From Escherichia phage vB_EcoD-Elw, in the sequence record OR621298: DNA of 64,000 nt; one strand, 5' to 3'. Shown here one piece after another: positions 4,933-41,367 of this stretch (position 1 is the stretch's first letter; the number at the start of each line of letters is the position of its first letter). The position numbers and the translations under genes were made by a program. The notes beneath the pieces were generated by a model. It saw only the letters and a list, made by a program, of their open reading frames with translations. It was not told the DNA's origin and ran no database searches.

Positions 4933-4947
4933 GAATTTATAAGATAT

Positions 4948-5472: not shown

Positions 5473-5502
5473 ATTTGGTTCCTCTTTCAAATTTATAGAT
5501 AT

Positions 5503-5531: not shown

Positions 5532-5647
5532 TCAAATTTTTTAACTTTTTAGAGGAAAATCATAGGGCACTTAAGGATAGCAGATAAGTGGTGAGGACCA
5601 AAATTTGTGACCCCACTAAAAATTCAGGGGCAATTTTTAAAGACCCC

Positions 5648-5676
5648 TTGACATTTTCGCTGGGGTAGTGTAAAGT
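5648..5676 (+). promoter_or_regulatory. candidate promoter of the plus-strand island (TTGACA-17-TAAAGT)
   Basis: Perfect -35 TTGACA with 17-nt spacer and weaker -10 TAAAGT; short inverted repeats just upstream. Confidence 0.45.
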
Positions 5677-5737
5677 ATATGTTATGGATGAGTGATCAAA
5701 GAGACACACATTTTCTATATACTAGGAGGTGTCAAAA

Positions 5738-6721: not shown

Positions 6722-6742
6722 TATTAAGGGGAGGAGCCCATT

Positions 6743-7159: not shown

Positions 7160-7168
7160 GGAGGAATT

Positions 7169-7363
7169 ATGTGTTGCAGAAAATCTGTTTCGTGCTGCCC
7201 AATGCCTGTAGCACGTTGTTGCTCTCCAGCAATGTTTACGCAAATACCGGCGTTCAATCCGTTTGCCTTTAAGCCTACTCTTATCCTGCCCCCTAGAGTA
7301 GATTTTCAGTCAAGATTGGCCTCCCGTATGGGTGGTTGCTGTAATAAGAGTATATGGTTCTGA
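7169..7363 (+). CDS. Cys-rich small protein (64 aa, four CC dipeptides), function unknown
   Basis: ATG 7169 with AAGGAGG RBS; MCCRKSVSCCPMPVARCCSP...GGCCNKSIWF; followed immediately by an intrinsic terminator. Confidence 0.6.
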   Translation: MCCRKSVSCCPMPVARCCSPAMFTQIPAFNPFAFKPTLILPPRVDFQSRLASRMGGCCNKSIWF

Positions 7364-7379
7364 AGAACCAAACAATAAA

Positions 7380-7413
7380 GCCCCTAGTCGAAAGACTTAG
7401 GGGCTTTTCTTTT
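7380..7413 (+). terminator. rho-independent terminator ending the plus-strand island
   Basis: Stem GCCCCTA/TAGGGGC with 11-nt loop, then TTTTCTTTT. Confidence 0.7.
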
Positions 7414-7420
7414 ATCTTAA

Positions 7421-7458
7421 ATACAGAAAAGCCCTGCGCTCTCCAGGAAACGCAGGGC
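7421..7458 (-). terminator. rho-independent terminator after the SPFH gene
   Basis: Stem GCCCTGCG/CGCAGGGC followed on the minus strand by TTTTCTGTAT. Confidence 0.65.
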
Positions 7459-7483
7459 TTATTTCAGATGTTACATGCGGGTA

Positions 7484-8431
7484 TTACTTATTACGCATAT
7501 CCATAATCATTTGGCCATCATAGCCAGTGCCAACCACAGTCTGCGGTACACCACCTTGGTATTTCTGAGCACGAATCATTTCAACTTCCAGTTGCTTCCA
7601 GCGAATCATCTCAGGAGTAATGGTACGTTGCAACGCGGCGTTAGCTTCAGCTTCTTTCTTAGCTGCGTACAGTTTGGCATCTGCGTCACGCTCATTGGCA
7701 ATAGCTTGGTTATTACGAGCTTCGCGATCTGCTTCTGCTTGTTTAACCTTCTGCTGTGCTTCTTGTTCAACACGAGCCAGTTCAGCTTTCGCAGCATTAA
7801 CTTGCTCTTCACGAACTTTGGTATTCTGTACCTGTTCCATGATTACCGGTGGCAAAGTAATATCCTGAAGGAATACCTGCTTAACTGTATAACCATATGG
7901 GCGTGCATACTCTTCAACTTCCTGTTGAATTGCAGTTTGCAATTGAGCCTGAATTTTAGCATCAAACAAATCTTGTGCTTTAGGTACAGACTTACCAAAC
8001 TCACGAATAGTAGACAGTAATTTTTCAGTTACATATTTGTCTAGCGCTTGATCCTGAGTACCTGCGTTAATACGGTTAATCGGTGCCTTAGAACCATCAA
8101 ACTGCAACATAACAGTCAGGTCAACAGTGGATTTAAACTTATCCTGACTAGGAACCTGAAGTTTATCTAATTTTAGAGCAATATCTTTAGTACTAAAAGT
8201 ATCGAAAGAAGCAAAAGGATTTACAATATGAAAGCCGGGTAGTACTGGGCTAGGGTCAACTTTACCCAGGAAAGTCTGGGTTTTAACAGTACCGTCTTGA
8301 ACAACGGTATAAGAGTTAAAGGCTAGAATCAAGCCTGCTAAACCAACTATAGCACCAATACCCCAACGTTTAATAGTACGAATTACTTTCTGCTCAGAAG
8401 TCAGTTCTTTCATATTTTTAGTATTAAACAT
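7484..8431 (-). CDS. SPFH/band-7 (stomatin/prohibitin/HflC-like) membrane protein
   Basis: 315 aa; N-terminal hydrophobic helix (WGIGAIVGLAGLILAF), central SPFH-like region, C-terminal Ala/Glu/Lys/Gln coiled coil; ATG 8431 with AAGGAAA RBS. Confidence 0.8.
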   Translation of the reverse strand: MFNTKNMKELTSEQKVIRTIKRWGIGAIVGLAGLILAFNSYTVVQDGTVKTQTFLGKVDPSPVLPGFHIVNPFASFDTFSTKDIALKLDKLQVPSQDKFKSTVDLTVMLQFDGSKAPINRINAGTQDQALDKYVTEKLLSTIREFGKSVPKAQDLFDAKIQAQLQTAIQQEVEEYARPYGYTVKQVFLQDITLPPVIMEQVQNTKVREEQVNAAKAELARVEQEAQQKVKQAEADREARNNQAIANERDADAKLYAAKKEAEANAALQRTITPEMIRWKQLEVEMIRAQKYQGGVPQTVVGTGYDGQMIMDMRNK

Positions 8432-8465
8432 ATATTTCCTTTGTTTTAGTTACAGTTAATAAAAT

Positions 8466-8540
8466 TGGCCGAGGTGACAGGATTCGAACCTGCATAAAGG
8501 AATTTAGAAGACTCCTGCCTCTCCATTAGACTACACCCCG
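8466..8540 (-). tRNA. tRNA-Arg (anticodon TCT)
   Basis: Acceptor CGGGGTG/CACCTCG, anticodon arm GGAGT-CTTCTAA-ATTCC, T-arm GCAGG-TTCGAAT-CCTGT, CCA. Confidence 0.75.
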
Positions 8541-22055: not shown

Positions 22056-22349
22056 AAATAACACTCCTATAGTGTACTTCGCTAACAGAGGATCAACAAA
22101 AAGATCTTGTTTATCAACTTACAAATATATTATACCAATATATACAGTAAAAAGCAACTACAATTTTAAATAAGCCTATGATATTGCATTTAAATAAAAA
22201 ATTTGCTTGCTTTTAACGTGAGATGTGTGATACTAGATAATCATTTTATATCGCGTGCACGAGTGCGTGATTATACAATTTTTAATAGAAATTGGCAAAT
22301 AAAATTTTTTGACTCAGATCATGTTGCAGAACTTTATAGTAAAATATTG

Positions 22350-22378
22350 TTGACATCCGCCCTCGAATGAGTTATAAT
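22350..22378 (+). promoter_or_regulatory. consensus sigma70 promoter (TTGACA-17-TATAAT) for nrdD
   Basis: Perfect -35 and -10 hexamers with 17-nt spacer in the divergent intergenic region. Confidence 0.7.
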
Positions 22379-22407
22379 AGTAGTCTTAGTTAGAGAAGGA
22401 GAGTGTA

Positions 22408-24282
22408 ATGAATCGTAATGAAGAACTAAAATATAAAGAAATGCAGGCGTTAATTAGAAACTGCAAAGAGATTATCGAAGGGTCAGCGGATGAAGAGCTG
22501 CTGTTTAATAATGCCAATAAACCCTCAGAACGTTTCCCTACACAGAGGGATATGCTTGCAGGTGAATTGAGTAAGTATCTGATTCTAGAAGAAATGCCAA
22601 TTCAGATTCGAAATGCTCATATGATTGGGGATATTCATTTCCATGATGCTGATTATGCTGCATTAGGCATGACTAATTGTTGTCTGGTAGCTCTGGAAGA
22701 TATGTTGAAGAATGGTATGAAGGTTGGTAATGCTGAAATTAGCACTCCAAACTCTATCACTACTGCAGCGGCTATTACTGCTCAGATTATCACTCAAGTT
22801 AGCTCCCATCAGTATGGGGGCACTTCCGTGGATCGCCTTGATGAAGTATTAGCTCCTTATGTTCGTAAATCCTATGACAAAAATCATGCGTTTGCAAAAC
22901 GTTGGACTAAGGATGAAGCCAAAGCATCAGTAATGGCTACGGAGATGACTGAAAAAGAAGTCTATGACGCTTGTCAGGGTTTAGAATATGAAATCAATAC
23001 CATGTTCAACTCTAATGGTCAGAGTCCATTTATTACCTTTGGTTTTGGTCTAGGAACTTCTTGGGAAGCACGTCTAGTACAGAAAGCAATATTGAAAGTA
23101 CGCATGGATGGTTTAGGTATCAATAAACGTACAGCTATCTTCCCGAAACTGGTATTTGTACTTCGTGATGGCGTAAATATGAAACCAGGGGATGTTAGTT
23201 ATGACATCAAGAAGTTAGCTATGAAATGTACTGCTGAACGTATGTATCCAGATTATATCAGCTATGACAAGGTTGTAGAAGTTACTGGAGACTATAAAGT
23301 TTCTATGGGCTGCCGTTCATTCCTAGCTGCTACAGAAGATGGTGAAACTGCTGGTCGTAATAACTTAGGTGTTGTTTCTGTAAACTTGCCTAGAATTGCT
23401 ATCGAAGCTGAAGGAAATATTGATCTATTCTTTGATTTGCTTGAGCTACGTGTGGATACAGCGTTAAAAGCATTGGAGTGGAGAGTTGATCGCTTAAAAT
23501 ACATCCAAGCTAAAGCTGCACCCATCCTCTATATGTCAGGAGCCTTTGGGTTACGCTTGGAGCCTGATGAATATGTATTCGATCATTTCTATAACCGTGC
23601 TTCTGTATCTCTAGGATATATTGGTTGCCATGAAATGCTACAGTTCATGTTTGGCAAAGATGTAGATACAATGTCCGAGACCTGCATCAAGTTTGTTCAG
23701 CGTGTGCTGCAGTACATGCGAGATAGAGTCGATCAGAAGAAGGAGGAGACTAAGTTAGGTTATAGCCTGTATGCTACACCGTCGGAATCCCTATGCGATC
23801 GTTTTTGTCGTCTAGACCGTGAATATTTCCCGGAGCATGAAGATATTCTGTCCAAAGGATACTACACTAACTCTCACCACCTTGATGTGGAACGTAAAGT
23901 TGCTCCCAACGTGAAATTTGATTATGAATCTAACTTTACTCCGATTGCTTCTGGTGGGTGTATTTCCTATGTAGAACTACCGGATATGAAACGATTCCCA
24001 GATGCACTAGAATGGGTTATTAATTATGCTGCTAGTAAAGTTCATTACTTCGGTATTAATACTCCGGTGGATTCTTGTGGTAAATGTGGATTCTTAGGTG
24101 AAACAGTAGCATCCGAAGATGGGTTTAAGTGCCCTATCTGTGGTAATCATGACCCCGAAACTCTTGAAGTAACTCGTCGAGTTTGTGGGTATCTTGGAAA
24201 TCCAGGTGCTCGTCCATTTAACCCAGGCAAACAGCATGAGGTTATGGGCAGAGTGAAACATCAGGATATTCGAGCTAAATAA
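22408..24282 (+). CDS. nrdD: anaerobic ribonucleoside-triphosphate reductase (class III)
   Basis: 624 aa; C-terminal glycyl-radical motif RVCGYLG and Zn-ribbon CGKCG...CPICG; GAAGGAGAG RBS. Confidence 0.9.
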   Translation: MNRNEELKYKEMQALIRNCKEIIEGSADEELLFNNANKPSERFPTQRDMLAGELSKYLILEEMPIQIRNAHMIGDIHFHDADYAALGMTNCCLVALEDMLKNGMKVGNAEISTPNSITTAAAITAQIITQVSSHQYGGTSVDRLDEVLAPYVRKSYDKNHAFAKRWTKDEAKASVMATEMTEKEVYDACQGLEYEINTMFNSNGQSPFITFGFGLGTSWEARLVQKAILKVRMDGLGINKRTAIFPKLVFVLRDGVNMKPGDVSYDIKKLAMKCTAERMYPDYISYDKVVEVTGDYKVSMGCRSFLAATEDGETAGRNNLGVVSVNLPRIAIEAEGNIDLFFDLLELRVDTALKALEWRVDRLKYIQAKAAPILYMSGAFGLRLEPDEYVFDHFYNRASVSLGYIGCHEMLQFMFGKDVDTMSETCIKFVQRVLQYMRDRVDQKKEETKLGYSLYATPSESLCDRFCRLDREYFPEHEDILSKGYYTNSHHLDVERKVAPNVKFDYESNFTPIASGGCISYVELPDMKRFPDALEWVINYAASKVHYFGINTPVDSCGKCGFLGETVASEDGFKCPICGNHDPETLEVTRRVCGYLGNPGARPFNPGKQHEVMGRVKHQDIRAK

Positions 24283-24289: not shown

Positions 24290-24322
24290 AGCCGGGTTGC
24301 TAGTCGACCTGGCTTTTATTTT
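24290..24322 (+). terminator. rho-independent terminator after nrdD
   Basis: Stem AGCCGGG/CCTGGCT followed by TTTTATTTT. Confidence 0.6.
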
Positions 24323-24324: not shown

Positions 24325-24353
24325 TTGCTTTCAGCCAAAAATTTATATATAAT
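24325..24353 (+). promoter_or_regulatory. sigma70-type promoter (TTGCTT-17-TATAAT)
   Basis: Consensus motif followed by a GAGAGGAG RBS. Confidence 0.65.
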
Positions 24354-24381
24354 AGATTTATAAATTTGAGAGGAGAAAGAT

Positions 24382-24762
24382 ATGGAATTAAAGCACTATA
24401 TAGTTGAATCTACATGTGGTAGTTTCCATCTGGGTGTAGATGATGTTGCTGAGGCTGTCTTTGCTGCCACAGGTGATTACTCGCATATAGAGGGTGTTGG
24501 ATACCCTACCATTATTGGCGATTGGGTGGGAACAAATCTAGATGTATCACCTTATAACCCATATTGCTTGTTTGATGAAGACAGAGATGAAGTAAAATGT
24601 AATCTTGAATTTGTGTATAATAGAGTGTTAAAAGTATACCAACGTAGCCCCAATGGGTACGAAGATATTACTTGGAGTATTAAACAGTATCTTAAAGATG
24701 TGTACTCTAGTTTTTCTGACGAAGACCTAGAAACAGTTGCAGTGGAGTTTAATAATGACTAA
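24382..24762 (+). CDS. hypothetical protein (126 aa)
   Basis: ATG 24382 with strong RBS. Confidence 0.6.
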   Translation: MELKHYIVESTCGSFHLGVDDVAEAVFAATGDYSHIEGVGYPTIIGDWVGTNLDVSPYNPYCLFDEDRDEVKCNLEFVYNRVLKVYQRSPNGYEDITWSIKQYLKDVYSSFSDEDLETVAVEFNND

Positions 24763-24961
24763 GAATGTGAAACACCTTAAATATCGCTTAATTTACAACG
24801 GACGTATGGAAACAGAAGATCTGGCCCAGTTAGCTATTAATTCTAATGAGGTTACGGTGCGTGCGCTGGCAATTGAAAAGTTGCGTGCTTCTTATGAAAA
24901 TCGTGTTATGGAACTAGAGGAGAAACTTTATGGCATTCTCGAAGCCGATGCTACCAGATAA
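24755..24961 (+). CDS. hypothetical protein (about 68 aa)
   Basis: Start placed at ATG 24755 (GGAG RBS); track start 24737 is TTG. Confidence 0.45.
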   Translation: MTKNVKHLKYRLIYNGRMETEDLAQLAINSNEVTVRALAIEKLRASYENRVMELEEKLYGILEADATR

Positions 24962-25151
24962 GGGTTTAAACTCCGCTTTGGAAAACGCATTAATGCAGCA
25001 CTGGGAAACTGGCTATAAGGATGGTGTTGAATCCTGCGCTACTATGCTAGAAGTTATTGCTAATACCTTAATGGAGAAAGGCAATAAAGAATTAGCTGAG
25101 CTATTAGACAGTATTGGGCAAAACTTCAGAGAACAGGTGAAAAATGCGTAG
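24930..25151 (+). CDS. hypothetical protein (73 aa)
   Basis: ATG 24930 with GAGGAGAAA RBS. Confidence 0.5.
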   Translation: MAFSKPMLPDKGLNSALENALMQHWETGYKDGVESCATMLEVIANTLMEKGNKELAELLDSIGQNFREQVKNA

Positions 25152-25968
25152 ATTAATTATTATTAGCGGTGCAGGTTTGAGTGTTGAAAGTGGTGTACGA
25201 GCTTTTCGTACTGATACTGCTAGTGGTAAAGCACTGTGGGATGATTATGATCTAGAAGAAGTATGTAATATTCATGCCTTTCGTGGTAATTTTTATCATA
25301 AAACCCATATGTTTTACAACAAGCGTCGTGAAGAGCTAAAAACTGTTGAACCTAACCTTGCGCATCTTCGTATTGGTGAGTGGTATAAACAATACCCAGG
25401 TCAAGTAGTAAACTTGACTACCAATGTTGATGACCTTATTGAACGTGCTGGCGTTCCACATAGTGACATTCTGCACATTCACGGATATTTAAAAGAGGTT
25501 GTTGTAGCTGACAGCTACAATAGTAGTAATAAACGAATTATTGATGTTGGGTATAACTCTATTGACCCAGATGATTATAAATGGGTTAAACCTAATGTAA
25601 TCTTCTTTGGTGAGCATGCTCCAGCATATACAGAAATGTACAATGTTTTTGATGGTATTACCAGTCAAGATATGATCATTGTGGTTGGTTGCTCTAACCA
25701 AGTAATTAACTTCTACTGGGAATTATTTCCTGTTCTTAATTTGACTGCTGCCAAATTAATGGTAGTTAACTACTATGATAGTGCCCTAGCGACAGAGCCG
25801 GGCTACCAAGGTATGACTCGTAGTGAGATGTACCAGCTGGAAGAACGCGGTATCCCTTACTGGAGTAAAGGGGCTGTAGATGCCTTCAGTGACCCTGATT
25901 TTATTGCTCGTGTAGAAGCTCATCTAGAGGGTAGACCTTATATGCCGGGGAAACAAATATGTCCATAA
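25144..25968 (+). CDS. Sir2-family (sirtuin-like) NAD-dependent protein without the Zn-ribbon
   Basis: 274 aa; GAGLSVESGVRAFR, TTNVDDLIERAG, IHGYL and PNVIFFGE match sirtuin Rossmann motifs; no CxxC...CxxC zinc module. Confidence 0.7.
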   Translation: MRRLIIISGAGLSVESGVRAFRTDTASGKALWDDYDLEEVCNIHAFRGNFYHKTHMFYNKRREELKTVEPNLAHLRIGEWYKQYPGQVVNLTTNVDDLIERAGVPHSDILHIHGYLKEVVVADSYNSSNKRIIDVGYNSIDPDDYKWVKPNVIFFGEHAPAYTEMYNVFDGITSQDMIIVVGCSNQVINFYWELFPVLNLTAAKLMVVNYYDSALATEPGYQGMTRSEMYQLEERGIPYWSKGAVDAFSDPDFIARVEAHLEGRPYMPGKQICP

Positions 25969-26141
25969 TTAAATCTGTGTATACACACCCTGATGATATA
26001 TTTGTATGGGCGGACGGTAGTTGGTGTTATCGCTGTGAGTTGTGGGAAATGGACTATAAATCCGATGACTATGGTGTTATATATGTGGATACGGTTGAGT
26101 ATGATACGTTCTTAGAAAGGAACAAAAATGGAAATAAGTAA
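25959..26141 (+). CDS. hypothetical protein (60 aa)
   Basis: ORF overlapping neighbours by a few codons; weak RBS. Confidence 0.4.
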   Translation: MSIIKSVYTHPDDIFVWADGSWCYRCELWEMDYKSDDYGVIYVDTVEYDTFLERNKNGNK

Positions 26142-26634
26142 TACTCCAATTATTTTTCTAGACATTGATGGGGTGCTCAATTCGAGCATCTCCCACCATC
26201 ATGCACCTGATGATGAAAAGATTTTCTTTGGAAGTGACTGGGTTTTCAAACCACTTCTCAAGGCTTTTCAGGACTTTATTCGTCCTTCTCCGATAATGAT
26301 TGTTGGAGTATCCTCATGGTTCTCTGTCAGGAATGAGATGGAGAACGTTCAGATTATGACCGGATTAGGTCTTATCGATCGTTTTCTTGGTACAACGGAT
26401 TTTACCGGGGGTGGATTATCTAGGGGTAATTCTGTTCTTCGCTTCGTTGAAAAGCATAAGCTCAAACATTGGTGTGTGCTGGATGATGCCGGTGCTATGA
26501 TGTATCAGTATCCAACGGTTATAGTCAATGGTAGAACAGGAATAAATCTTCAGGATTTAAAAGCTGTTAGCTATATGCTAGAATTTAGCCCAGATCTTGA
26601 AATGTGTAAATCCTTACAACAATTTAAGGTGTAA
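26128..26634 (+). CDS. HAD-superfamily phosphatase-like protein
   Basis: 168 aa; N-terminal motif I IIFLDIDGVLN (DxDGV); GAAAGGAAC RBS. Confidence 0.6.
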   Translation: MEISNTPIIFLDIDGVLNSSISHHHAPDDEKIFFGSDWVFKPLLKAFQDFIRPSPIMIVGVSSWFSVRNEMENVQIMTGLGLIDRFLGTTDFTGGGLSRGNSVLRFVEKHKLKHWCVLDDAGAMMYQYPTVIVNGRTGINLQDLKAVSYMLEFSPDLEMCKSLQQFKV

Positions 26635-26636
26635 AT

Positions 26637-27065
26637 ATGTTCAATAATGTATTCTCTAAAGAAGCTAACCCAATTTTGGTTAACTTTTGGCGTACTCTCC
26701 CGGCTAGCCTGTATAATGAGGCTATTAACTCCTTGAAAATATGGTGTGAGAATAACGAAATCTCCTTTGCTTTTAAAGATGATATTGATGAGGCCCCCTG
26801 TATTGGTCTAGTTGTGCAGGTAGAGGAGGGTCTTGAAGAGATTGTGGGCTGGAAAGAGTTAGACGAAATGGGCTTAGTTTTTGCGTTAAATTATAAGCTG
26901 TTTATGCCTGCTAAGCATCGCCTAGTTGTTAACTATAAAACTAGTGAATCTCCTGGTTTTCAGGTTAATGAACGTTATGGTTGGTCTTACTCACCGGAAG
27001 AAGTAAATGATGGTATCCAAAAACTTCGTCGTTTTGGTTATCAAATTCCGGGTTTAACCGCCTAA
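26637..27065 (+). CDS. hypothetical protein, paralogue A of a tandem pair
   Basis: Shares blocks with the next gene (EAPCIGLVVQ vs DDPCIGVFLS; MGLVFALNYKLF vs MGLIVALNFSIF; YQIPGL vs YVPGL). Confidence 0.6.
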   Translation: MFNNVFSKEANPILVNFWRTLPASLYNEAINSLKIWCENNEISFAFKDDIDEAPCIGLVVQVEEGLEEIVGWKELDEMGLVFALNYKLFMPAKHRLVVNYKTSESPGFQVNERYGWSYSPEEVNDGIQKLRRFGYQIPGLTA

Positions 27066-27074
27066 GGGGGCATA

Positions 27075-27467
27075 ATGGAACAAGTATATTGGCGTCAGAT
27101 TGATCCTAGTTTGGTGAAGCGTGCGGAGAAGCTGCTACAACGTTGGTTGGTGGTAAGACAAGTCTCCTTCACTTTTCCGGAGCAGCAAACGGATGATCCA
27201 TGCATTGGCGTTTTCCTGTCTGGATATGCCGGGGAATGGGAATTGGATTGGAATGAATTGTCTGCTATGGGCTTGATTGTTGCCCTAAACTTCTCTATAT
27301 TCCATCCACGTGGTTTGGCCATATGTCGTGTGCCTGATGACGGTTGTTCGCCCCATCTTTTACAGGTGGAAGATGATATTTGGGAGTACACTCCAGATAT
27401 TCTCGCAGAAGCTAAAGAACAATTAAATCGTGTTGGGATTTATGTTCCGGGCTTAAATGATGGATGA
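27075..27467 (+). CDS. hypothetical protein, paralogue B of a tandem pair
   Basis: Paralogue of 26637-27065; AAGGGGG RBS. Confidence 0.6.
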   Translation: MEQVYWRQIDPSLVKRAEKLLQRWLVVRQVSFTFPEQQTDDPCIGVFLSGYAGEWELDWNELSAMGLIVALNFSIFHPRGLAICRVPDDGCSPHLLQVEDDIWEYTPDILAEAKEQLNRVGIYVPGLNDG

Positions 27468-27491
27468 TTTTTATTAGCTAAACTCTGATTA

Positions 27492-27515
27492 CCGAGTCAT
27501 TTTGGCTCGGTTTTA
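27492..27515 (+). terminator. rho-independent terminator
   Basis: Stem CCGAG/CTCGG with 9-nt loop followed by TTTT. Confidence 0.55.
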
Positions 27516-27558
27516 TCCGTACTTAAGACCAATGATAGCACCATCCGGAAAATTTTAC

Positions 27559-33400: not shown

Positions 33401-33589
33401 ATGAAAGTAACACTTCCAAAAATTCAAGCAAAGTTAAATCTAGTATCGAATGCTAGAAATAACTATCTAGATAACTTTGGTGGAATCAACGATAAAGCGT
33501 ACAAAGATGCGTGGTTGAAAGAAGCACAAGAGTTAGCCGATCTCATTGCTCAGTATAATAAAGAACTACAGGTAGAAATGAATGACTAA
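33401..33589 (+). CDS. hypothetical protein (62 aa)
   Basis: ATG 33401 with AGAGGA RBS. Confidence 0.5.
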   Translation: MKVTLPKIQAKLNLVSNARNNYLDNFGGINDKAYKDAWLKEAQELADLIAQYNKELQVEMND

Positions 33590-34553
33590 TGTAAAAGACT
33601 TTATTAAACGTTGCCAAGAAGCATATTATCAAGGTATGTCTTTAATCTCTGATGAGGAGTATGATTGCCTGGTAAAACGCTTCCCACTAGAAGAAGAGAT
33701 CGGGCCTAAGGGCGATATTCCACATCTGTATCGTATGTATTCTTTACAGAAAGTTTATTATAATCGTGGAGATAAACCCCCATTTAACCCATTAGGTCAG
33801 GTAGAAACTGACAAGTTAGATGGTTGTGCGATTTCTCTACTATATATTAATGGCGAATTTGTTCAAGCACTAACTCGTGGTAATGGTATTCTAGGGAATG
33901 ATGTCACAAGCAACGTAAGATTGCTGAACATTCCTAAAAAGATTTCCCAAAAAGTACCTACTCAAATCACTGGTGAAGTTCTAATTACAAAAGAAGTAGA
34001 AAATAAACGTAACTTTGCCTCTGGTGCTATTAACCTAAAAGATAGTGATGCTTTCGTACAACGTATCGGGGAAGGTGGTTTAATCTTCGTTGCATACGGT
34101 ATCCAGTGTTCTGCTGAATCTGTAGGTATTACAGAATCATATTTAAAAGATATGCTTTGGCTAGAGAATGAAGACTTCTTAACAGTTGTTAATGTGCGTT
34201 CCTTCTTTAGATGGATTCCGACGGACGGTAAAGTTGTTCGTATTAATGACAACAACAAATTCTTCCGAGAAGGCTGGACTAATAAATTCCCTCGCGGGGC
34301 GTTCGCTATTAAAGAGGATGAAGAAGGAGAGATTACAACTCTTACTAAAGTTGAATGGCAGGTAGGGGCTTCTGGTAAAGTAACTCCAGTTGGTTATTTC
34401 GAACCGGTAATTATTGATGATGCTACAATTGTTAAAGCGACTCTTAATAACGTTGATTATATTAACTCTCTCGATCTAGAGATCGGTTGCCAGATTCGAG
34501 TGATTCGTGCTGGTGGTGTAATCCCGTGCATAGTAGAGCGAGTATACTATTAA
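33582..34553 (+). CDS. NAD-dependent DNA ligase, N-terminal (adenylation) subunit
   Basis: 323 aa; KxDG adenylation motif in KLDGCAISLLYINGEFVQALTRGNG and an OB-fold-like C-terminal part; separate ORF from the Zn-finger/HhH/BRCT part. Confidence 0.8.
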   Translation: MTNVKDFIKRCQEAYYQGMSLISDEEYDCLVKRFPLEEEIGPKGDIPHLYRMYSLQKVYYNRGDKPPFNPLGQVETDKLDGCAISLLYINGEFVQALTRGNGILGNDVTSNVRLLNIPKKISQKVPTQITGEVLITKEVENKRNFASGAINLKDSDAFVQRIGEGGLIFVAYGIQCSAESVGITESYLKDMLWLENEDFLTVVNVRSFFRWIPTDGKVVRINDNNKFFREGWTNKFPRGAFAIKEDEEGEITTLTKVEWQVGASGKVTPVGYFEPVIIDDATIVKATLNNVDYINSLDLEIGCQIRVIRAGGVIPCIVERVYY

Positions 34554-34754
34554 TACATAACCCTTTGCTACCCATCTACCATATAGGAATTATAAAGTGG
34601 TTATTGACATTTTCGCCGCTTAGGTATATACTATTATCATTCAGTTGAGGGATAGAAAGTTATGGCGAGGGTAAGCAAAGTTAGTTAAAATTGTAGTTGC
34701 TAAATGCTTAAATACTTGCTATAATATTTATATAAATTGATAAGGAAGAAATTT

Positions 34755-35535
34755 GATGAAAATCGAAATTCCAACACAATGTCCCTCTTGTGGTTCTAAG
34801 CTAGATCTTGTCAACGGACAATTATTCTGTCGTAATAAGTCCAACTGTCCAGCGCAATCAAGCAAGTTAATTGAGAACTTCTGTTCAAAAATGAAGTTAA
34901 AGGGCTTTGGCCCAAAAACTATTGAGAAGCTGGAGCTGACGAAGATTTCAGAACTATTTTACCTAACCGAAGAAGATTTGGTTAGAGCCGTGGGTAGCAA
35001 GGTTGCCGCTAAGTTAATTAGCGAATTAAATACTAAAGTTCGCGGAGACATTGACTTTGGTTCAGTTCTCGGTTCTTTAGGAATCCCTCTAATTGGAGAG
35101 GTTGCAGCAAAGAAATTATCCCAAAATTGCACTAGCTTTCACGATGTGAAGGCTGACGGCAAGGCTGGAGAAAATTACAAAGCCTGGCTAAATTCCCCAC
35201 AAGGCAAGGATGTTATTAAACTACCGTGGAAATTTTCAACTGGTATTAAGGGCACTAAAGCTGACGTCATCATTACAGATGAATTAGTTGCCCAGCCAAA
35301 TGGAATCGCGGTATGTATTACCGGATCTTTGCAAGATTTTGCAAATCGAACGGATGCAACAAACTATTTAGAAGGTCTAGGATATACGGTTAAGAAATCC
35401 GTTACCAAAGACGTCAAATACCTAATCTGTGAGGATGAATCAAAACGTTCTTCCTCATCTTATAAGAAAGCCGAAACGAATGGGATAGAAATCCTGTCGA
35501 TTAAAGAACTATTGGAGAAAAATAATAATGTCTAA
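34755..35535 (+). CDS. NAD-dependent DNA ligase, C-terminal (Zn-finger/HhH/BRCT) subunit
   Basis: Start at ATG 34755 (AAGGAAG RBS); Cys4 finger CPSCGS...CRNKSNCPAQ, HhH-like region, BRCT-like C-terminus. Confidence 0.8.
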
Positions 35536-36295
35536 ACTGAACTGGAACGTAGAAGGTGTAACCGAGTCTCTGAAAGCAAAAGCCACTGCTCTGGGTGTTT
35601 CTGTAATCTCTCAAGAACAGGTAGCTGCTATCGCTGCTGAACTGGCTGCTGAAACTGGCAAAGATGTTACTGCTCGCTCTGTTGGCTCTAAACTGCGTAA
35701 AGAAGGTTTTGAAGTACAGAAAGCTAACGAAGTACAGAAATCCCCGTGGACTCCTGAGCAGGAAGCTGAACTGGTTGATTTCCTGAACGCTCATGCTGGT
35801 CAGTATACCTATGCTGAAATCGCTGCTGCTGTAGCTGGTGGTCAGTTCGGTGCTAAGCAGGTACAGGGTAAGATCCTGAGTCTGGAAATGACCGCTTCTG
35901 TTAAACCAACTGAAAAAGCTGCTGCTGTTCGTTCCTTTACTCCGGATGAAGAAACTGATTTTGTTAATCAGGTTGTTGCTGGTGCTACTATTGAAGCTAT
36001 CGCTGCTCACTTCGGCCGCAATATCAAGCAGATCCGTGGTAAAGCTCTGAGCCTGCTTCGTGAAGGTCGTATTGCTGCTATGCCGGTACAGGAAACTTCA
36101 AGTGCTAAAACTCGTGAAGATCTGTTAGAAGGTCTGGATCTGGTTAACATGACTGTTGCTGAGATCGCTGAGAAAACCGGTAAGTCTGAGCGTGGTGTTA
36201 AATCTATGCTGTCTCGTCGTGGTCTGGTTGCTAAGGACTATGATGGTGCCGCTAAGCGTGCTAAACTGGATGCAAAAGCTGCGGCTGCTGAATAA
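35528..36295 (+). CDS. Ala-rich protein with three HTH-like repeats (255 aa), probably abundant DNA-binding protein
   Basis: Three related segments (VSVISQEQVAAIAAELAAETGKDVTARSVGSKLRKEG; ATIEAIAAHFGRNIKQIRGKALSLLREG; MTVAEIAEKTGKSERGVKSMLSRRG); strongly E. coli-like codon usage; followed by a strong terminator. Confidence 0.65.
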   Translation: MSKLNWNVEGVTESLKAKATALGVSVISQEQVAAIAAELAAETGKDVTARSVGSKLRKEGFEVQKANEVQKSPWTPEQEAELVDFLNAHAGQYTYAEIAAAVAGGQFGAKQVQGKILSLEMTASVKPTEKAAAVRSFTPDEETDFVNQVVAGATIEAIAAHFGRNIKQIRGKALSLLREGRIAAMPVQETSSAKTREDLLEGLDLVNMTVAEIAEKTGKSERGVKSMLSRRGLVAKDYDGAAKRAKLDAKAAAAE

Positions 36296-36312
36296 TCTGG
36301 TAAATTAAACCT

Positions 36313-36346
36313 AAGGGGAGGGGGCTATGCTCCTTCCCCTTTTTGC
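36313..36346 (+). terminator. rho-independent terminator (GC-rich 10-bp stem plus U-run)
   Basis: GGGGAGGGGG..CTCCTTCCCC stem with the ATG at 36327 in its loop, followed by TTTTT. Confidence 0.6.
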
Positions 36347-36377
36347 ATTTAGAAGGCACGAAAGCGTGCAAAGGAGA

Positions 36378-37850
36378 ATGACCTTGTTTAACGTGCAAGC
36401 TGTAGTGTTGAAGATGCTTCTAGCTTCCGAACAGAAGCAAATAGCATTGGAAACATTCTCAAAACTGCATAAAGATCATTTTAATGACGCTTTCTCCTCA
36501 ATTTACCAAGCCGTCCAGAATTATTATAAAAAATATAACACAATGCCGTCCATTGACGCACTTATGCTTGAAGCTAATAGGAACGCCCGCCTTTCTCAAG
36601 CTCTAGTCGTCTTAGCTAACACTCAAATTCCAGAAGTGAGCATGGAACAGGCACTTGAAGTCCTAGAAGCCGAATATACACAGGATTTATTCCTGAAGCT
36701 TCTAGAAACAGACGTGCTTCAAGATTTAACAATGCTGGATCAGGGAGAAATTCTCAACCGAGTTGCCTCCCTTCACTTAAAATTAGAAGAGAAAGTAACG
36801 AATACTGGAAAAGTATTCAACGCAGATAACATGCGTATTTTCCAGAGAGAAGAAGATACCAAACTGAACTTAATCGCTCTTGGTATTTGTAATGAGTTCG
36901 ACGCTCAAATTGGTTTAGCTCGCACAGAAACGTTACTGCTTGGTGGTTGGCGTGGTACTGGTAAATCCATTATCTGTTCAAACATACAGGTTCAGCAATA
37001 TTTGAATGGAGATATTGCTCCATACTTCTCAATTGAGATGAAAGAACACGAAGTATTTAGACGTAATCTAGCCATGTTAGCTGGTGTATCAGCACTAGCA
37101 ATGCGTAATAATACTCTAGAAGGTGCAGCTCTGTTGAGATTAGCCAGAACTAGAGCCAGAATGTTTAATGGTGGTGAAGAGCTTTTTGATAACTTCGTTA
37201 AACAGTACACGATGGCTAAGATGAGTGATTTCTACGATATGGAGAGTAAGCTAATAGAGGGATATGAACTACATACTCCTATGATTATCGTTTATGACCC
37301 TGAACTGTCCATTACAACAGTTGACGTAGAATTAAATAAATTAGTTGCTAGATATGGTGATAAAGTTACAGTAGCTTTACTGGACTATATTAACCAAACC
37401 CGACTTCCAGATTCTAAAACCATTGATATGTATGACTGGAAAGAACAGATGGTTGTTAGCTCGTCTTTCAAATCTATCTGCCAGAAACATAACGTGGCTG
37501 GTGTAGCTCCTTACCAGATCGATCAAGATGGTAGAACACGTATGTCAAAGGGGATTCTTGATTCCGCAGACATGGCTGCTAATCTTAATGCTGCAAAAGC
37601 TGATAATGGTCAAGGTGCTATTATGTTTGACTTCGTTAAGACTCGTTCTTCTGATAGCGTGAAGTTTATGCCTAAGATGAACTGGGAAACTCTGCGAATG
37701 GATAATACAACTAACCTAGCAATGGAAGATATATCTCAAATGGAAGCTGAGTTCGTTATCCCTATTGAGAAGGATAAGCCGGCTCAACCTAAACGTGCTA
37801 AGAAAGACAAAACTGAAAATTTAACAGGTGAACAGGCCAGCGATATATGA
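36378..37850 (+). CDS. DnaB-like replicative helicase (start uncertain)
   Basis: Walker A GGWRGTGKS and Walker B-like IIVYDPE; longest ORF starts at ATG 36327 inside the terminator hairpin; ATG 36378 follows AAGGAG with a very short spacer. Confidence 0.65.
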   Translation: MTLFNVQAVVLKMLLASEQKQIALETFSKLHKDHFNDAFSSIYQAVQNYYKKYNTMPSIDALMLEANRNARLSQALVVLANTQIPEVSMEQALEVLEAEYTQDLFLKLLETDVLQDLTMLDQGEILNRVASLHLKLEEKVTNTGKVFNADNMRIFQREEDTKLNLIALGICNEFDAQIGLARTETLLLGGWRGTGKSIICSNIQVQQYLNGDIAPYFSIEMKEHEVFRRNLAMLAGVSALAMRNNTLEGAALLRLARTRARMFNGGEELFDNFVKQYTMAKMSDFYDMESKLIEGYELHTPMIIVYDPELSITTVDVELNKLVARYGDKVTVALLDYINQTRLPDSKTIDMYDWKEQMVVSSSFKSICQKHNVAGVAPYQIDQDGRTRMSKGILDSADMAANLNAAKADNGQGAIMFDFVKTRSSDSVKFMPKMNWETLRMDNTTNLAMEDISQMEAEFVIPIEKDKPAQPKRAKKDKTENLTGEQASDI

Positions 37851-38737
37851 GTAGAATAACAGAACTACTTGATCTGAAAGGCATTGAATATAAAGACACA
37901 GGTGGGGACATCCTCATCTGTTGTCTCAATCCAGATCATGACGATAAACACCCAAGTTTGCGTATTGATCCTGAAACAGGTATTATGCACTGCTTGAGTT
38001 GTGGCTTCGGTAAAGGTATACCGAGCATTTACCATTATTTTAATGAGACTCAGTACCGACAGTCTCCAAGACTATCACAGGTACGTAAAAAGATTTCAGA
38101 GATTAGGAATGGATCAACGAATCTTGCAATTCCTGAATCTGCTTACCTTTTCGAAGGTGATTTCCGAGGTATAAGTTCTAAGACCTTGAAGAAATATTTT
38201 GCTTTCCAACACCAAGCAGACTGGGAAGGCAGAATTGTATTCCCAATCACAGATGCTGTTGGACGCAATATCCTATTTTTGGGTCGTTCTATAAACAGTT
38301 CTGCCCCTCCTAAATACTTAGTAAAACCAAAACAAGTTTCACCGCCAATTTTTCCTGTACGATATAATACTCCAGTTCTTATTCTAGTTGAAGGCATCTT
38401 TGATATGCTGAACCTAGAGGATAATGGTATAGACTATGCTTCTTGCTGCTTTGGTACACATCAGTTTACTTCGGATAACATTGCAGATAAGTTCAGTCCT
38501 TATATTATTGCTGGGGTAAAAGTTGTTGTTATCTTACTAGATAATGATGCTTCTGGTAATAAAGCTGCACAAGCATTGGCTAAGCTAATTCGTACAAAAA
38601 CGCGTTTAACACCTGTAGTTGCTAACTTCCTCCTGCCTGAAGGCAAAGATCCAGGTGATTTAAACAAAGATGAAATTGATATGTTAGCAAAACGTATTGA
38701 AATTTTAGTTGCTGAATCGCTTAAAGATTTGGTATAA
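37847..38737 (+). CDS. DnaG-like DNA primase (Zn-finger plus TOPRIM)
   Basis: 296 aa; Zn finger CCLNPDHDDKHPSLRIDPETGIMHCLSCG; TOPRIM motifs ILVEGIFDM and LLDNDASGNKA; ATGA-coupled to the helicase. Confidence 0.85.
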   Translation: MSRITELLDLKGIEYKDTGGDILICCLNPDHDDKHPSLRIDPETGIMHCLSCGFGKGIPSIYHYFNETQYRQSPRLSQVRKKISEIRNGSTNLAIPESAYLFEGDFRGISSKTLKKYFAFQHQADWEGRIVFPITDAVGRNILFLGRSINSSAPPKYLVKPKQVSPPIFPVRYNTPVLILVEGIFDMLNLEDNGIDYASCCFGTHQFTSDNIADKFSPYIIAGVKVVVILLDNDASGNKAAQALAKLIRTKTRLTPVVANFLLPEGKDPGDLNKDEIDMLAKRIEILVAESLKDLV

Positions 38738-38738
38738 T
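38709..38738 (+). promoter_or_regulatory. promoter with extended -10 (TGGTATAAT)
   Basis: TTGCTG, 18-nt spacer, TATAAT, inside the primase 3' end. Confidence 0.5.
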
Positions 38739-38742
38739 ATAT

Positions 38743-38786
38743 TGGTAAGTTAGAGAAGAAACACTGAAGTTATACTTACTTACCAA
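38743..38786 (+). promoter_or_regulatory. 9-bp inverted repeat (stem-loop) in the DNA polymerase 5' leader
   Basis: TTGGTAAGT..ACTTACCAA with 26-nt loop; 3' arm abuts the AAGAGG RBS of the TTG-initiated polymerase gene. Confidence 0.45.
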
Positions 38787-38799
38787 GAGGAGATTAAAT

Positions 38800-41367
38800 T
38801 TGAAAATCGCAGTAGTTGATAAAGCTCTAAACAACACTCGTTATGATAAACATTTCCAGCTATACGGCGAGGAAGTTGATGTATTCCATATGTGTAACGA
38901 GAAGTTATCTGGTCGTTTGCTTAAAAAGCACATTACTATTGGAACACCAGAAAACCCATTTGATCCGAATGATTATGATTTTGTTATACTAGTAGGTGCT
39001 GAACCTTTCCTGTACTTCGCAGGTAAGAAAGGCATTGGTGACTATACTGGTAAACGTGTAGAGTATAATGGATATGCTAACTGGATTGCGAGTATCAGCC
39101 CAGCCCAGTTACACTTTAAGCCTGAAATGAAACCAGTCTTTGATGCAACAGTAGAGAATATCCACGATATTATCAATGGTCGTGAGAAGATTGCAAAAGC
39201 TGGTGATTACCGTCCTATTACTAACCCTGACGAGGCGGAAGAATATATCAAGATGGTGTATAATATGGTTATCGGACCTGTAGCATTCGACTCCGAAACC
39301 TCAGCACTATACTGTCGAGATGGTTATCTGCTTGGCGTTTCTATGTCTCACCAAGAGTATCAGGGTGTATATATCGATTCTGATTGTCTCACAGAGGTTG
39401 CAGTATATTATCTCCAGAAAATTCTGGATAGTGAAAACCACACTATTGTTTTTCACAACTTGAAGTTTGATATGCACTTTTATAAGTACCATCTGGGACT
39501 TACTTTTGATAAAGCACATAAAGAACGCAGGCTCCATGATACTATGTTGCAGCATTATGTTCTAGATGAGCGTCGTGGTACTCATGGCTTGAAATCTCTA
39601 GCAATGAAGTATACCGATATGGGCGACTATGACTTTGAACTAGATAAGTTCAAGGATGATTACTGCAAAGCACATAAAATCAAGAAAGAAGATTTCACAT
39701 ATGATTTAATTCCGTTTGATATTATGTGGCCTTACGCTGCAAAAGATACAGATGCTACCATACGTTTGCACAACTTCTTCTTACCAAAAATTGAGAAGAA
39801 TGAAAAACTTTGCAGTCTGTATTATGATGTTCTAATGCCTGGTTGTGTATTTCTCCAGCGTGTTGAGGATCGTGGTGTACCTATTTCTATTGATCGTTTA
39901 AAAGAAGCTCAGTACCAGTTAACTCATAATCTGAATAAAGCTCGTGAGAAGCTGTATACTTATCCAGAAGTCGTTCAGCTAGAGAAAGATCAGAACGAAG
40001 CGTTTAACCCAAACTCTGTTAAGCAGCTACGTGTTCTTCTGTTTGATTATGTTGGCTTAACCCCAACAGGTAAATTGACGGATACTGGAGCAGACTCTAC
40101 AGATGCAGAAGCTCTGAACGAATTGTCTACGCAGCATCCAATTGCTAAGACTCTACTAGAGATTCGTAAGCTGACTAAGCTGATCTCTACTTACGTTGAG
40201 AAGATTCTTCTGAGCATTGATGCTGATGGTTGCATTCGTACTGGCTTCCACGAACACATGACTACTTCTGGTCGTCTGAGTTCTTCTGGTAAACTGAACC
40301 TGCAACAGTTACCTCGTGATGAATCTATTATCAAGGGTTGTGTGGTTGCACCACCTGGATACCGTGTAATCGCATGGGACTTAACAACTGCGGAAGTTTA
40401 TTATGCTGCTGTTCTATCTGGTGATAGAAATATGCAACAGGTATTTATCAACATGAGAAATGAACCTGATAAATACCCTGACTTCCACTCTAACATCGCA
40501 CACATGGTATTTAAGCTCCAATGCGAACCTCGTGATGTTAAAAAGTTATTCCCAGCTCTGCGTCAAGCAGCTAAAGCAATCACCTTTGGTATTCTGTATG
40601 GTTCTGGCCCAGCTAAAGTAGCTCATTCTGTTAACGAAGCTCTTCTGGAACAGGCTGCTAAGACAGGCGAACCGTTTGTAGAGTGTACTGTTGCAGATGC
40701 TAAAGAGTACATTGAAACTTACTTCGGTCAGTTCCCGCAGCTTAAGCGTTGGATTGATAAGTGCCACGATCAGATCAAGAATCATGGATTTATCTATAGT
40801 CACTTTGGTCGTAAACGTCGTCTGCATAATATCCACTCCGAAGACCGTGGTGTTCAGGGTGAAGAAATCCGTTCTGGATTTAACGCAATCATTCAGTCTG
40901 CTTCTTCTGATAGCCTCCTTTTAGGTGCGGTAGATGCAGATAATGAGATCATTTCTCTTGGCCTAGAACAAGAGATGAAGATTGTTATGCTGGTTCATGA
41001 CTCCGTAGTTGCTATTGTTCGTGAGGATTTGATCGACCAATACAATGAAATCCTGATTCGTAATATTCAGAAAGACCGTGGTATCAGTATCCCTGGCTGT
41101 CCGATTGGTATTGATTCTGATTCTGAGGCTGGAGGTTCTCGTGACTACTCCTGTGGTAAGATGAAGAAACAGCATCCATCAATCGCTTGTATTGATGATG
41201 ATGAATATACTCGTTATGTCAAGGGTGTATTACTTGATGCAGAGTTCGAGTATAAGAAACTAGCTGCAATGGATAAAGAGCATCCAGATCATAGCAAGTA
41301 CAAGGATGATAAGTTTATTGCTGTATGTAAAGATCTGGATAACGTGAAAAGGATTCTCGGTGCTTAA
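38800..41367 (+). CDS. family-A DNA polymerase with 3'-5' exonuclease domain
   Basis: 855 aa, TTG start with AAGAGG RBS; exo motif VAFDSETSAL; polymerase motifs FNPNSVKQL, FHEHMTTSGRLSS, KAITFGILYG, VHDS. Confidence 0.9.
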   Translation: MKIAVVDKALNNTRYDKHFQLYGEEVDVFHMCNEKLSGRLLKKHITIGTPENPFDPNDYDFVILVGAEPFLYFAGKKGIGDYTGKRVEYNGYANWIASISPAQLHFKPEMKPVFDATVENIHDIINGREKIAKAGDYRPITNPDEAEEYIKMVYNMVIGPVAFDSETSALYCRDGYLLGVSMSHQEYQGVYIDSDCLTEVAVYYLQKILDSENHTIVFHNLKFDMHFYKYHLGLTFDKAHKERRLHDTMLQHYVLDERRGTHGLKSLAMKYTDMGDYDFELDKFKDDYCKAHKIKKEDFTYDLIPFDIMWPYAAKDTDATIRLHNFFLPKIEKNEKLCSLYYDVLMPGCVFLQRVEDRGVPISIDRLKEAQYQLTHNLNKAREKLYTYPEVVQLEKDQNEAFNPNSVKQLRVLLFDYVGLTPTGKLTDTGADSTDAEALNELSTQHPIAKTLLEIRKLTKLISTYVEKILLSIDADGCIRTGFHEHMTTSGRLSSSGKLNLQQLPRDESIIKGCVVAPPGYRVIAWDLTTAEVYYAAVLSGDRNMQQVFINMRNEPDKYPDFHSNIAHMVFKLQCEPRDVKKLFPALRQAAKAITFGILYGSGPAKVAHSVNEALLEQAAKTGEPFVECTVADAKEYIETYFGQFPQLKRWIDKCHDQIKNHGFIYSHFGRKRRLHNIHSEDRGVQGEEIRSGFNAIIQSASSDSLLLGAVDADNEIISLGLEQEMKIVMLVHDSVVAIVREDLIDQYNEILIRNIQKDRGISIPGCPIGIDSDSEAGGSRDYSCGKMKKQHPSIACIDDDEYTRYVKGVLLDAEFEYKKLAAMDKEHPDHSKYKDDKFIAVCKDLDNVKRILGA

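Follow-up and report, generated by a model that had tools for sequence, protein, structure and literature searches.

Why would a bacteriophage encode a sirtuin and a small phosphatase next to each other? The question is raised by a locus in a stretch of 64,000 nt of Escherichia phage vB_EcoD-Elw (OR621298; hereafter the window, to whose positions all coordinates refer), in which a sirtuin gene of the Sir2 family is followed by a gene for a HAD-type phosphatase and by two tandem paralogues with DUF7415 repeats. Our tentative reading is that the sirtuin would remove 2'-phosphates from RNA at the expense of nicotinamide adenine dinucleotide (NAD+), with the HAD clearing the ADP-ribose-phosphate by-product. 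The locus as such is already known and interpreted in print. In phage T5 the homologous genes have been annotated since 2005, the sirtuin as 'cobB, putative transferase, Sir2', the HAD as 'Aeh1ORF302c-like' and the DUF7415 pair as 'ORF098' and 'Aeh1ORF298c-like', between an annotated early promoter (T5P31) and a rho-independent terminator, so that the Sir2/HAD/DUF7415 object cannot count as new. Both the neighbourhood and a prediction of RNA repair for it also appeared in a survey of viral NAD+/ADP-ribose systems (Iyer, Burroughs, Anantharaman and Aravind 2022, Viruses 14:1977, section 3.7.3; PMC9503650), which lay beyond the knowledge of the initial annotation of this window, made from the sequence alone. 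New here are the class III signature of the sirtuin together with the lineage-specific loss of its zinc site, the sister position of the T5 HAD to HADs of NARP1 operons, the co-deletion of both genes in a natural isolate, and the mis-annotation of the HAD.

The sirtuin and the HAD phosphatase

The Pfam profile SIR2 (PF02146) covers the sirtuin end to end (profile positions 1-178 of 180; 88.5 bits against a cut-off of 24, E 6.9e-25). The motifs on which the initial annotation had founded its Sir2-like assignment, namely GAGLSVESGVRAFR (aa 9-22), TTNVDDLIERAG (aa 92-103), IHGYL (112-116) and PNVIFFGE (150-157), are all present, and the NAD+ site and the catalytic His are intact. The best sequence match in the Protein Data Bank (PDB) was E. 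coli CobB (1s5p, E 1.4e-17), followed by archaeal Sir2 and SIRT5. An AlphaFold model (AF2, built on 72 homologues) reached a predicted local distance difference test score (pLDDT) of 89.8, and a Foldseek search with it returned CobB on top (E 6e-17, TM 0.71/0.85), then archaeal Sir2-Af1 and SIRT5. Both comparisons, by profile and by structure, had been proposed as checks on the assignment, and both speak for a sirtuin.

An alignment of the best-scoring 120 homologues among the matches listed, each at least 49% identical, showed as invariant G9-A10-G11, S13, S16-G17, F21-R22, W32, C41, Y58, R61-R62, P70-N71, H74, N94, D96, H113-G114, F154-F155, E157, G182, S184 and N209. The NAD+-binding and catalytic set (GAGxS, F-R, N-x-D, H113, G182-x-S184 and N209, the Asn that contacts the adenine ribose) is thus unchanged in the 72-121 homologues compared, and the sole substitution in it is Gln to Thr93 (TQNxD to TTNVD), which is constant across the clade. 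Furthermore, the invariant Y58 and R61 fall on the Y-N-A-R of CobB in the alignment, the closest structures are of class III, and the acyl-pocket position of CobB A76 is always Cys (C41). Since the NAD+ pocket, the catalytic His and the class III Tyr/Arg pair are invariant, they are under selection, and we regard the sirtuin as a predicted active enzyme and not as a decayed copy.

The zinc site sets this sirtuin apart. Its residues 114-159 contain neither Cys nor His, while E. coli CobB has four Cys there, and across 121 members of the clade this segment holds 0-2 Cys per sequence. A small three-stranded sheet is still predicted by AlphaFold (strands 114-122, 131-134 and 147-152, pLDDT >90). 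According to the model, then, the zinc ligands are lost and the small module is kept, so that the absence of a zinc ribbon claimed at the outset holds for the ligands and fails for the fold. Two distant relatives of about 35% identity, on jumbo-phage contigs of 279 and 608 kb (L135, 10001-10708, and L136, 9977-10705; L-numbers label the loci of the compared relatives), keep two Cys pairs and TQN(C/I)D. Because they retain both features, the losses of the zinc cysteines and of TQNxD arose within the phage lineage. Judged from the alignments, the whole clade of T5- and rV5-type sirtuins has lost the zinc cysteines and changed TQNxD to TTNVD, the two jumbo-phage proteins seem to stand midway from cellular class III sirtuins to this form, and the sirtuin of the window is a zinc-less offshoot of the class III (CobB/SIRT5-type) enzymes.

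It does not score as a CobB orthologue, reaching 100 bits against an NCBIfam cut-off of 243 and 90 against 320 (NF040867, NF001753 and others). A kinship with the Sir2 effectors of host defence, which the initial annotation had brought up, did not hold either: the protein is a single domain of 274 aa and matched no PADLOC family at E <=0.01, and nearest to it in sequence and structure are the deacylases CobB and SIRT5. When 185,579 species were scanned with one genome apiece, the motifs of the clade occurred on only two contigs of metagenome-assembled genomes, which makes the clade essentially phage-restricted.

The HAD was likewise recognised correctly at the outset. It matches PF18143 (HAD_SAK_2) with 73 bits against a cut-off of 27.5 (E 4e-20), a Pfam family that was set up from 'Swiss-army-knife' RNA-repair proteins. 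The full set of four HAD motifs is present, FLDIDGVLN (D12, D14), S62/S63, R99 and D119-D120, and their residues do not vary among 14 sequences, the most distant of which have 37% identity; the predicted phosphatase active site is complete. A sequence search found no solved relative at E <0.1. The label 'Sir2 (NAD-dependent deacetylase)' that RefSeq and PHROG attach to the HAD is wrong, as BLASTP against Sir2 gave an E of only 0.2 and the protein belongs to PF18143. The error has been spread by phrog_18062 and is repeated in many T5-like genomes (e.g. L001, 5986-6492), with the result that T5-like annotations show 'Sir2 (x2)'.

Gene neighbourhoods in other phages

The window derives from a T5-like phage. 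Its stretch 24300-27800 matches 530 phage records, with Salmonella phage Kenya-K18 as the best match (96% identity), and the top matches listed are nearly all T5-like phages of Salmonella, Escherichia and Klebsiella. Tequintavirus and its relatives have the order sirtuin, 60-aa open reading frame (ORF), HAD, at more than 30 IMG/VR loci. Three divergent T5-like loci (L002, L075 and L209) show the order HAD, small ORF, sirtuin, with overlapping stops and starts, and in two of the three (L075 and L209) NrdD is missing at the locus. Overall the linkage between sirtuin and HAD survives three different gene orders. It is also reflected in a natural deletion in L020, a Shivani-like T5 relative (IMGVR_UViG_2706796320, 7468-8003), in which window position 25004 is joined to 26317. 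The missing 1.3 kb (window 25005-26316) comprise, besides the sirtuin gene and the 60-aa ORF, 63 codons at the start of the HAD; NrdD and the DUF7415 pair are intact. Sirtuin and HAD have been lost together there and are therefore both linked and dispensable.

Outside the T5-like phages the two genes were found in different company, each at a number of loci close to NARP1, the pair of a Prs-like (Adps) and a Nampt-like (Namat) enzyme that was first shown in the rV5-like phage Bas63. The sirtuin clade repeatedly occurs within 6 kb of NARP1. In rV5/Mydo-like phages it is part of an operon Metallophos..RNA_lig_T4_1-cREC-AAA_33 kinase-x-SIR2-DNA ligase (at least ten loci), which is transcribed divergently from Adps-Namat genes a few kb away, with a NADAR gene about 6 kb further. 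In L132, L134 and L205 the sirtuin has Adps/Namat or a Namat-like gene as neighbour, and an RNA ligase is missing. It adjoins NrdD in L133, L134 and L205, so that the Sir2-NrdD adjacency recurs outside the T5-like phages. In these loci, from unrelated phage lineages, we observed the sirtuin between a Namat/Nampt-like gene and NrdD (L134, 8039-13122; L205, 6080-11129; L133).

The HAD has its nearest relatives beyond the T5-like phages (37-43% identity) directly 5' of Adps-Namat in L003, L073 and L074, where it is the first gene of a series HAD-[small ORF]-Adps-Namat in Vequintavirinae-like phages of 147-152 kb; L003 6001-9217 equals positions 35888-39104 of Serratia phage ChuuTotoro (ON287369.1). 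No Macro-domain gene is visible in these three operons. In a neighbour-joining tree without bootstrap the T5-like HADs are sister to those heading the NARP1 operons. Taken with the sirtuin loci near NARP1, this lends support to the earlier suggestion of a link to NAD+/ADP-ribose metabolism; nothing in our analysis points to the NAD+ depletion or host takeover that had been suggested along with it. More distant HADs (34% identity or less) had no NARP1 link in any of 66 metagenome loci, and just three of 52 IMG/VR loci contained a weak Namat/Adps-like match within 8 kb. Distant HAD_SAK_2 relatives thus occur nearly without NAD-related context, and the NARP1 link is specific to the close subclade. 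Homologues of this distant kind adjoin thymidylate synthase in T4-like Aeromonas phages.

Possible functions of the pair

In the reaction that we tentatively favour, the sirtuin would transfer ADP-ribose from NAD+ onto an anionic group of a macromolecule, most likely a 2'-phosphate on cleaved and rejoined transfer RNA (tRNA) or other RNA, as Tpt1/KptA does. Nicotinamide and ADP-ribose 1'',2''-cyclic phosphate would be released, the latter then being opened to ADP-ribose 1''-phosphate, and the HAD would dephosphorylate the ADP-ribose phosphate to plain ADP-ribose; a role of the HAD in trimming 2'/3'-phosphate RNA ends seems less likely. Such a module might help the phage to survive host nucleases that cut tRNA and would be accessory rather than essential, with the DUF7415 pair and the small ORFs as co-transcribed passengers or modulators.

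Two lines of evidence lead to this proposal. The rV5-type operon, with its ligase, kinase, cREC and SIR2 genes, mirrors the tRNA splicing set of yeast with the sirtuin in the place of Tpt1, which suggests an RNA 2'-phosphate as target. This parallel is the argument of Iyer et al. (PMC9503650), who set apart a viral clade of sirtuins with three kinds of neighbourhood and predicted, on computational grounds only, KptA/Tpt1-like activity on RNA 2'-phosphates. Their third neighbourhood, typified by Escherichia phage SP15, combines the sirtuin with a HAD of the 'Swiss-army-knife'-like kind, to which they assigned a role at RNA ends; the window conforms to it, with a viral-clade Sir2 and a HAD_SAK-type HAD one 60-aa ORF apart. 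The other line comes from the HAD. Osterman et al. (bioRxiv 2026.01.28.702374) reported that a RES-domain defence (aRES) converts NAD+ to ADP-ribose (ADPR)-1''-phosphate, which NARP1 cannot use, and that some NARP1 operons add the Macro-domain phosphatase Adpp, which acts on ADPR-1''-phosphate (ADPR-1''P). Adpp is a homologue of the tRNA-splicing enzyme Poa1p, and the extended system, NARP1-AP, defeats aRES. Since a Poa1p homologue is an accessory gene of NARP1 and the T5-type HAD holds the same accessory position elsewhere, the HAD can be read as an ADP-ribose-phosphate phosphatase, and HAD-Adps-Namat may be a HAD-based counterpart of NARP1-AP with its Macro-type Adpp. The words 'HAD', 'haloacid' and 'sirtuin' do not occur in the text of that preprint. 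Another preprint describes a glycosidase in a NARP1 operon, RyDEP, that turns cyclic ADP-ribose (cADPR) signals into ADPR; Adpp and RyDEP are hence both accessory enzymes of NARP1 that make ADPR from its derivatives. The two lines converge, and a sirtuin making ADP-ribose phosphate next to the phosphatase for it is a coherent reading of the T5 pair.

Several observations weigh against this proposal. Every residue needed for lysine deacylation is conserved in the sirtuin, which makes a deacylase the simplest explanation. In the window and in the complete Tequintavirus genome Bas32, single-sequence phmmer searches (E <=0.01), by which remote homologues could be missed, detected no Adps, Namat, Rnl1-type RNA ligase, polynucleotide kinase/AAA_33, cREC or NADAR; the phage is accordingly no member of the NARP1 carriers, and an RNA-repair pathway would have to lean on host enzymes. 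The complete genome of ChuuTotoro, which carries HAD-Adps-Namat, encodes no Sir2 anywhere, so the substrate of the HAD need not derive from a phage sirtuin. No partner is recognisable at about 12 Sir2 loci, the HAD tree lacks bootstrap support, and phage early regions pack unrelated genes tightly, the operon region being a nucleotide-metabolism cluster. The literature we found on phage sirtuins consists of genome descriptions and the 2022 computational survey, with no experimental study among them.

The deacylase explanation is the alternative to which we give most weight, even if we consider it unlikely. The sirtuin would be an ordinary NAD+-dependent lysine desuccinylase, demalonylase or deacetylase that resets host or phage acylation early in infection, and the HAD would be separate or a second 'eraser' acting as a protein phosphatase. 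CobB and SIRT5 as best matches in sequence and fold fit this explanation, as do the invariant H113, the FGE substrate loop and the acyl-carboxylate-binding Y58-x-x-R61; the residue at the position of CobB A76 is small (C41), as in class III enzymes. The small HAD leaves little room for a cap domain, and cap-less members of the HAD superfamily often act on macromolecules. The scores far below the NCBIfam CobB cut-offs, the replacement of the conserved Gln of TQNxD by Thr and the loss of the structural zinc site are less easily accommodated; to our knowledge all characterised deacylase sirtuins keep that site. Moreover, O-acyl-ADP-ribose as product calls for an esterase and not a phosphatase, which leaves the conserved and co-deleted HAD unexplained, and an rV5-like operon with RNA ligase, kinase and cREC would be unexpected for a deacylase. 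A small-molecule counter-defence without RNA appears improbable to us. Here the HAD would act on ADPR-1''-phosphate or 2'-phospho-ADPR from NAD(P)+ breakdown, for example by aRES, and the sirtuin on NAD+ or an NAD+-derived signal, or it would tune the NAD+ pool. HAD homologues do head NARP1 operons, once in a genome without Sir2, in the position that Macro-type Adpp has in the aRES-defeating NARP1-AP; the sirtuin adjoins Adps/Namat(-like) genes without RNA ligase in L132, L134 and L205, and a natural isolate can do without the pair, as is often true of anti-defence genes. But the T5-like phages have no Adps/Namat to use the ADPR, and NadR/PnuC (NARP3) was absent from the ten large window ORFs scanned and from the gene names of the Bas32 annotation. 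Since the phage also encodes an NAD+-dependent DNA ligase, a plain NADase would be to its own detriment, and the sirtuin is unlike the SIR2 domains of defence NADases, given the lack of a PADLOC match. We know of no sirtuin that degrades cADPR-type signals.

It is more doubtful still that sirtuin, HAD and DUF7415 pair are merely co-located in a nucleotide-metabolism block, with the HAD as a nucleotidase for deoxynucleoside monophosphates (dNMP), nucleoside monophosphates or nicotinamide mononucleotide (NMN). Such an arrangement would agree with the place of the operon between NrdD and the replication genes, with NrdAB, Thy, Frd and PhoH nearby, and with the recurring neighbours of the single genes: thymidylate synthase beside distant HADs, NrdD/NrdG/MazG beside single-domain DUF7415 proteins in T4-like Klebsiella phages, and NrdD beside the sirtuin in L133, L134 and L205. 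It is at odds with a HAD-Sir2 adjacency that outlasts both reordering and the loss of NrdD, with overlapping reading frames, and with the specific tie of the HAD subclade to NARP1; T5 also has a dedicated dNMP phosphatase elsewhere. A transferase followed by a phosphatase is, finally, the logic of alpha-ribazole synthesis, and the pair could be an analogue of CobT/CobB plus CobC, in which the sirtuin would attach phosphoribosyl from NMN or nicotinic acid mononucleotide to a base, and loss of the 5'-phosphate through the HAD would yield an unusual nucleoside. CobB was first found via such an activity, as cited in a passage of PMC9503650. Without cobalamin or base-modification genes nearby, and with the full ADP-binding half of the NAD+ site conserved, we hold this explanation to be very far-fetched.

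Removal of RNA 2'-phosphates by the sirtuin, with the HAD acting on the by-product, therefore stays our preferred, tentative reading. It can be extended into a wider and distinctly more speculative scheme: the T5-type HAD subclade would consist of phosphatases for ADPR-1''P and/or 2'-phospho-ADPR, non-Macro analogues of Adpp; in the Vequintavirinae-like phages they would form a HAD-based NARP1-AP that defeats RES-type NAD+ phosphorolysis, and their partner in the T5-like phages would be a zinc-less sirtuin whose acceptor is no longer acyl-lysine but a phosphate, for instance an RNA 2'-phosphate. NAD+ is a central battleground between phages and bacteria, as NARP1, NARP2, NARP3, aRES, Thoeris and SIR2-HerA illustrate, and T5-like and rV5-like phages, widely used in phage therapy and biocontrol, carry a predicted NAD+-consuming sirtuin in hundreds of genomes. 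If the sirtuin does remove RNA 2'-phosphates, this would be a new chemistry for its family, the first sirtuin with a Tpt1-like reaction, and a novel means by which phages counter immunity through tRNA cleavage. Should the HAD prove to be an ADP-ribose-phosphate phosphatase, one more accessory enzyme would be known to feed NARP1, and a plain deacylase would be one of the few examples of a phage that alters the acylation of host proteins. What is gained in practice is the correction of a widespread mis-annotation of the HAD and a short list of candidate substrates.

The operon, its surroundings and related systems

The sirtuin and HAD genes belong to a series of eight genes that overlap or abut and that we predict to form one transcription unit (about 24325-27516). 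All reading frames of the initial annotation were recovered in the ORF list where it had placed them; it had missed the 60-aa ORF between sirtuin and HAD (25959-26141) and the three small ORFs upstream (24382-25151). The predicted promoter directly follows the terminator hairpin of NrdD and is homologous to the T5P31 site in T5. The hairpin at the end of the operon is absent from the output of the consensus terminator scan, and T5 has its annotated rho-independent terminator at the homologous place.

Features of the predicted operon and its boundaries (positions in the window)
Feature	Position	Strand	Evidence and remarks
NrdD terminator hairpin	24290-24314		Consensus terminator scan
Predicted early promoter	24325..24353	+	-35 TTGCTT 24325-24330, 17-nt spacer, -10 TATAAT 24348-24353; read from the sequence
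Ribosome-binding site GAGGAG	24370-24375	+	Read from the sequence, 3' of the -10 element
ORF094-like orphan protein, 126 aa	24382..24762	+	phrog_11748
Small ORF, 74 aa	24737..24961	+	phrog_5236
Small ORF, 73 aa	24930..25151	+	phrog_5827; stop overlaps the sirtuin start
Phage sirtuin, 274 aa	25144..25968	+	PF02146
Small ORF, 60 aa	25959..26141	+	phrog_5116; between sirtuin and HAD, overlaps both
HAD_SAK_2 phosphatase, 168 aa	26128..26634	+	PF18143
DUF7415 paralogue A, 142 aa	26637..27065	+	PF24187, 1.1e-35; two repeats
DUF7415 paralogue B, 130 aa	27075..27467	+	PF24187; two repeats; phage-only fold
Terminator-like hairpin ACCGAG..CTCGGT, then TTTTAT	27491..27516	+	Read by eye; end of the operon

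The tandem paralogues noted at the outset are a genuine pair (31% identity over 124 residues, E 1e-20). They score 122 and 108 bits against PF24187 (cut-off 27), each with two DUF7415 repeats. The predicted model (pLDDT 91.8) had no match among solved structures, and its matches in BFVD were phage DUF7415 proteins only. Single-repeat DUF7415 proteins occur in T4-like phages. The pair is kept without the HAD in the T5-like loci L128-L130, and HAD and sirtuin are kept without the pair in the divergent L002, L075 and L209. The pair and the two enzymes thus occur separately, their link is loose, and the earlier placement of the pair in the same functional unit is weakened. Of the small ORFs, the ORF094-like protein travels with sirtuin and HAD in divergent T5-like phages: a homologue lies between HAD and SIR2 in L075 (2e-11) and another upstream of the sirtuin in L108. 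It had no match in Pfam, PDB or PADLOC, and its homologues amount to only nine clusters among 1.8 billion representatives, with a single long match that has no informative domain. Homologues of the 74-aa ORF stand upstream of the sirtuin in L115, L116, L120 and L122, and those of the 60-aa ORF directly after it in L109, L115, L116, L120, L122, L129 and L130.

Some observations on the wider region may be added. NrdD (22408-24282) is present, but no NrdG activase was seen in the ORFs next to it; all that the annotation of Bas32 offers is a small 'formate acetyltransferase' (GrcA-like) in another part of the genome. An NAD+-dependent DNA ligase is encoded in two parts, adenylation and OB domains at 33582-34553 and HhH and BRCT domains at 34753-35535; this ligase lies 6 kb downstream of the sirtuin and would be the second NAD+-consuming enzyme of the phage. 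A sign change of the GC skew coincides with the divergent PhoH/NrdD promoters (about 22.1-22.4 kb; window 22064-22408), and a second one is found near 49-50 kb, where the genes change strand again. The minus strand of window 91-8540 carries thirteen tRNA genes among small ORFs, including tRNA-Lys(CUU) at 1594-1669; T5 tRNAs are known to counter tRNA-cleaving defence, which speaks for the RNA-repair reading of the pair. In the same part of the window, 6001-8000 is locally GC-rich (0.458 against about 0.39), and a 330-aa ORF without Pfam match (5729-6721) stands beside a Band_7/SPFH gene (7484-8431, minus), which overlaps a 181-aa ORF on the opposite strand.

Compared with known systems, the sirtuin shares with the SIR2 NADases of bacterial defence (ThsA, DSR1/2, SIR2-HerA) the Rossmann core of the Sir2 superfamily and the use of NAD+. 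It differs from them in its fit to PF02146 and to deacylase structures, in having no sensor or partner domains, and in being phage-encoded. It is closer to CobB and SIRT5, with which it has in common the fold, GAGxS, F-R, N-x-D, the catalytic His, the FGE loop and the Y-x-x-R pair. Set against these enzymes, it is about 24% identical in a structural alignment, has no zinc ligands, reads TTNVD instead of TQNID, has an invariant Cys41 and an extra 20-30 residues after strand 204-208, and is restricted to phages.

The resemblance to NARP1-AP lies in a phosphatase embedded in a NARP1 operon, a place that homologues of the window HAD hold in Vequintavirinae-like phages, whereas the characterised phosphatase is a Macro domain and not a HAD, and the window phage is without Adps/Namat. 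With Tpt1/KptA and Poa1p of yeast tRNA splicing the pair would share the sequence of reactions, from NAD+-dependent removal of an RNA 2'-phosphate through ADP-ribose (cyclic) phosphate and a phosphatase to ADP-ribose. This is a proposed analogy without homology, as the fold of Tpt1 is that of an ADP-ribosyltransferase and Poa1p belongs to the Macro proteins, while the window encodes a Rossmann-fold sirtuin and a HAD. The closest precedent is the SP15-type neighbourhood. Unlike the present analysis, PMC9503650 is silent on the HAD-NARP1 link, the loss of the zinc cysteines and the DUF7415 pair, but the neighbourhood it describes consists of the same gene pair in the same phage group, and it places the same sirtuin clade together with RNA ligase, cREC and kinase in V5/Mydo-type phages.

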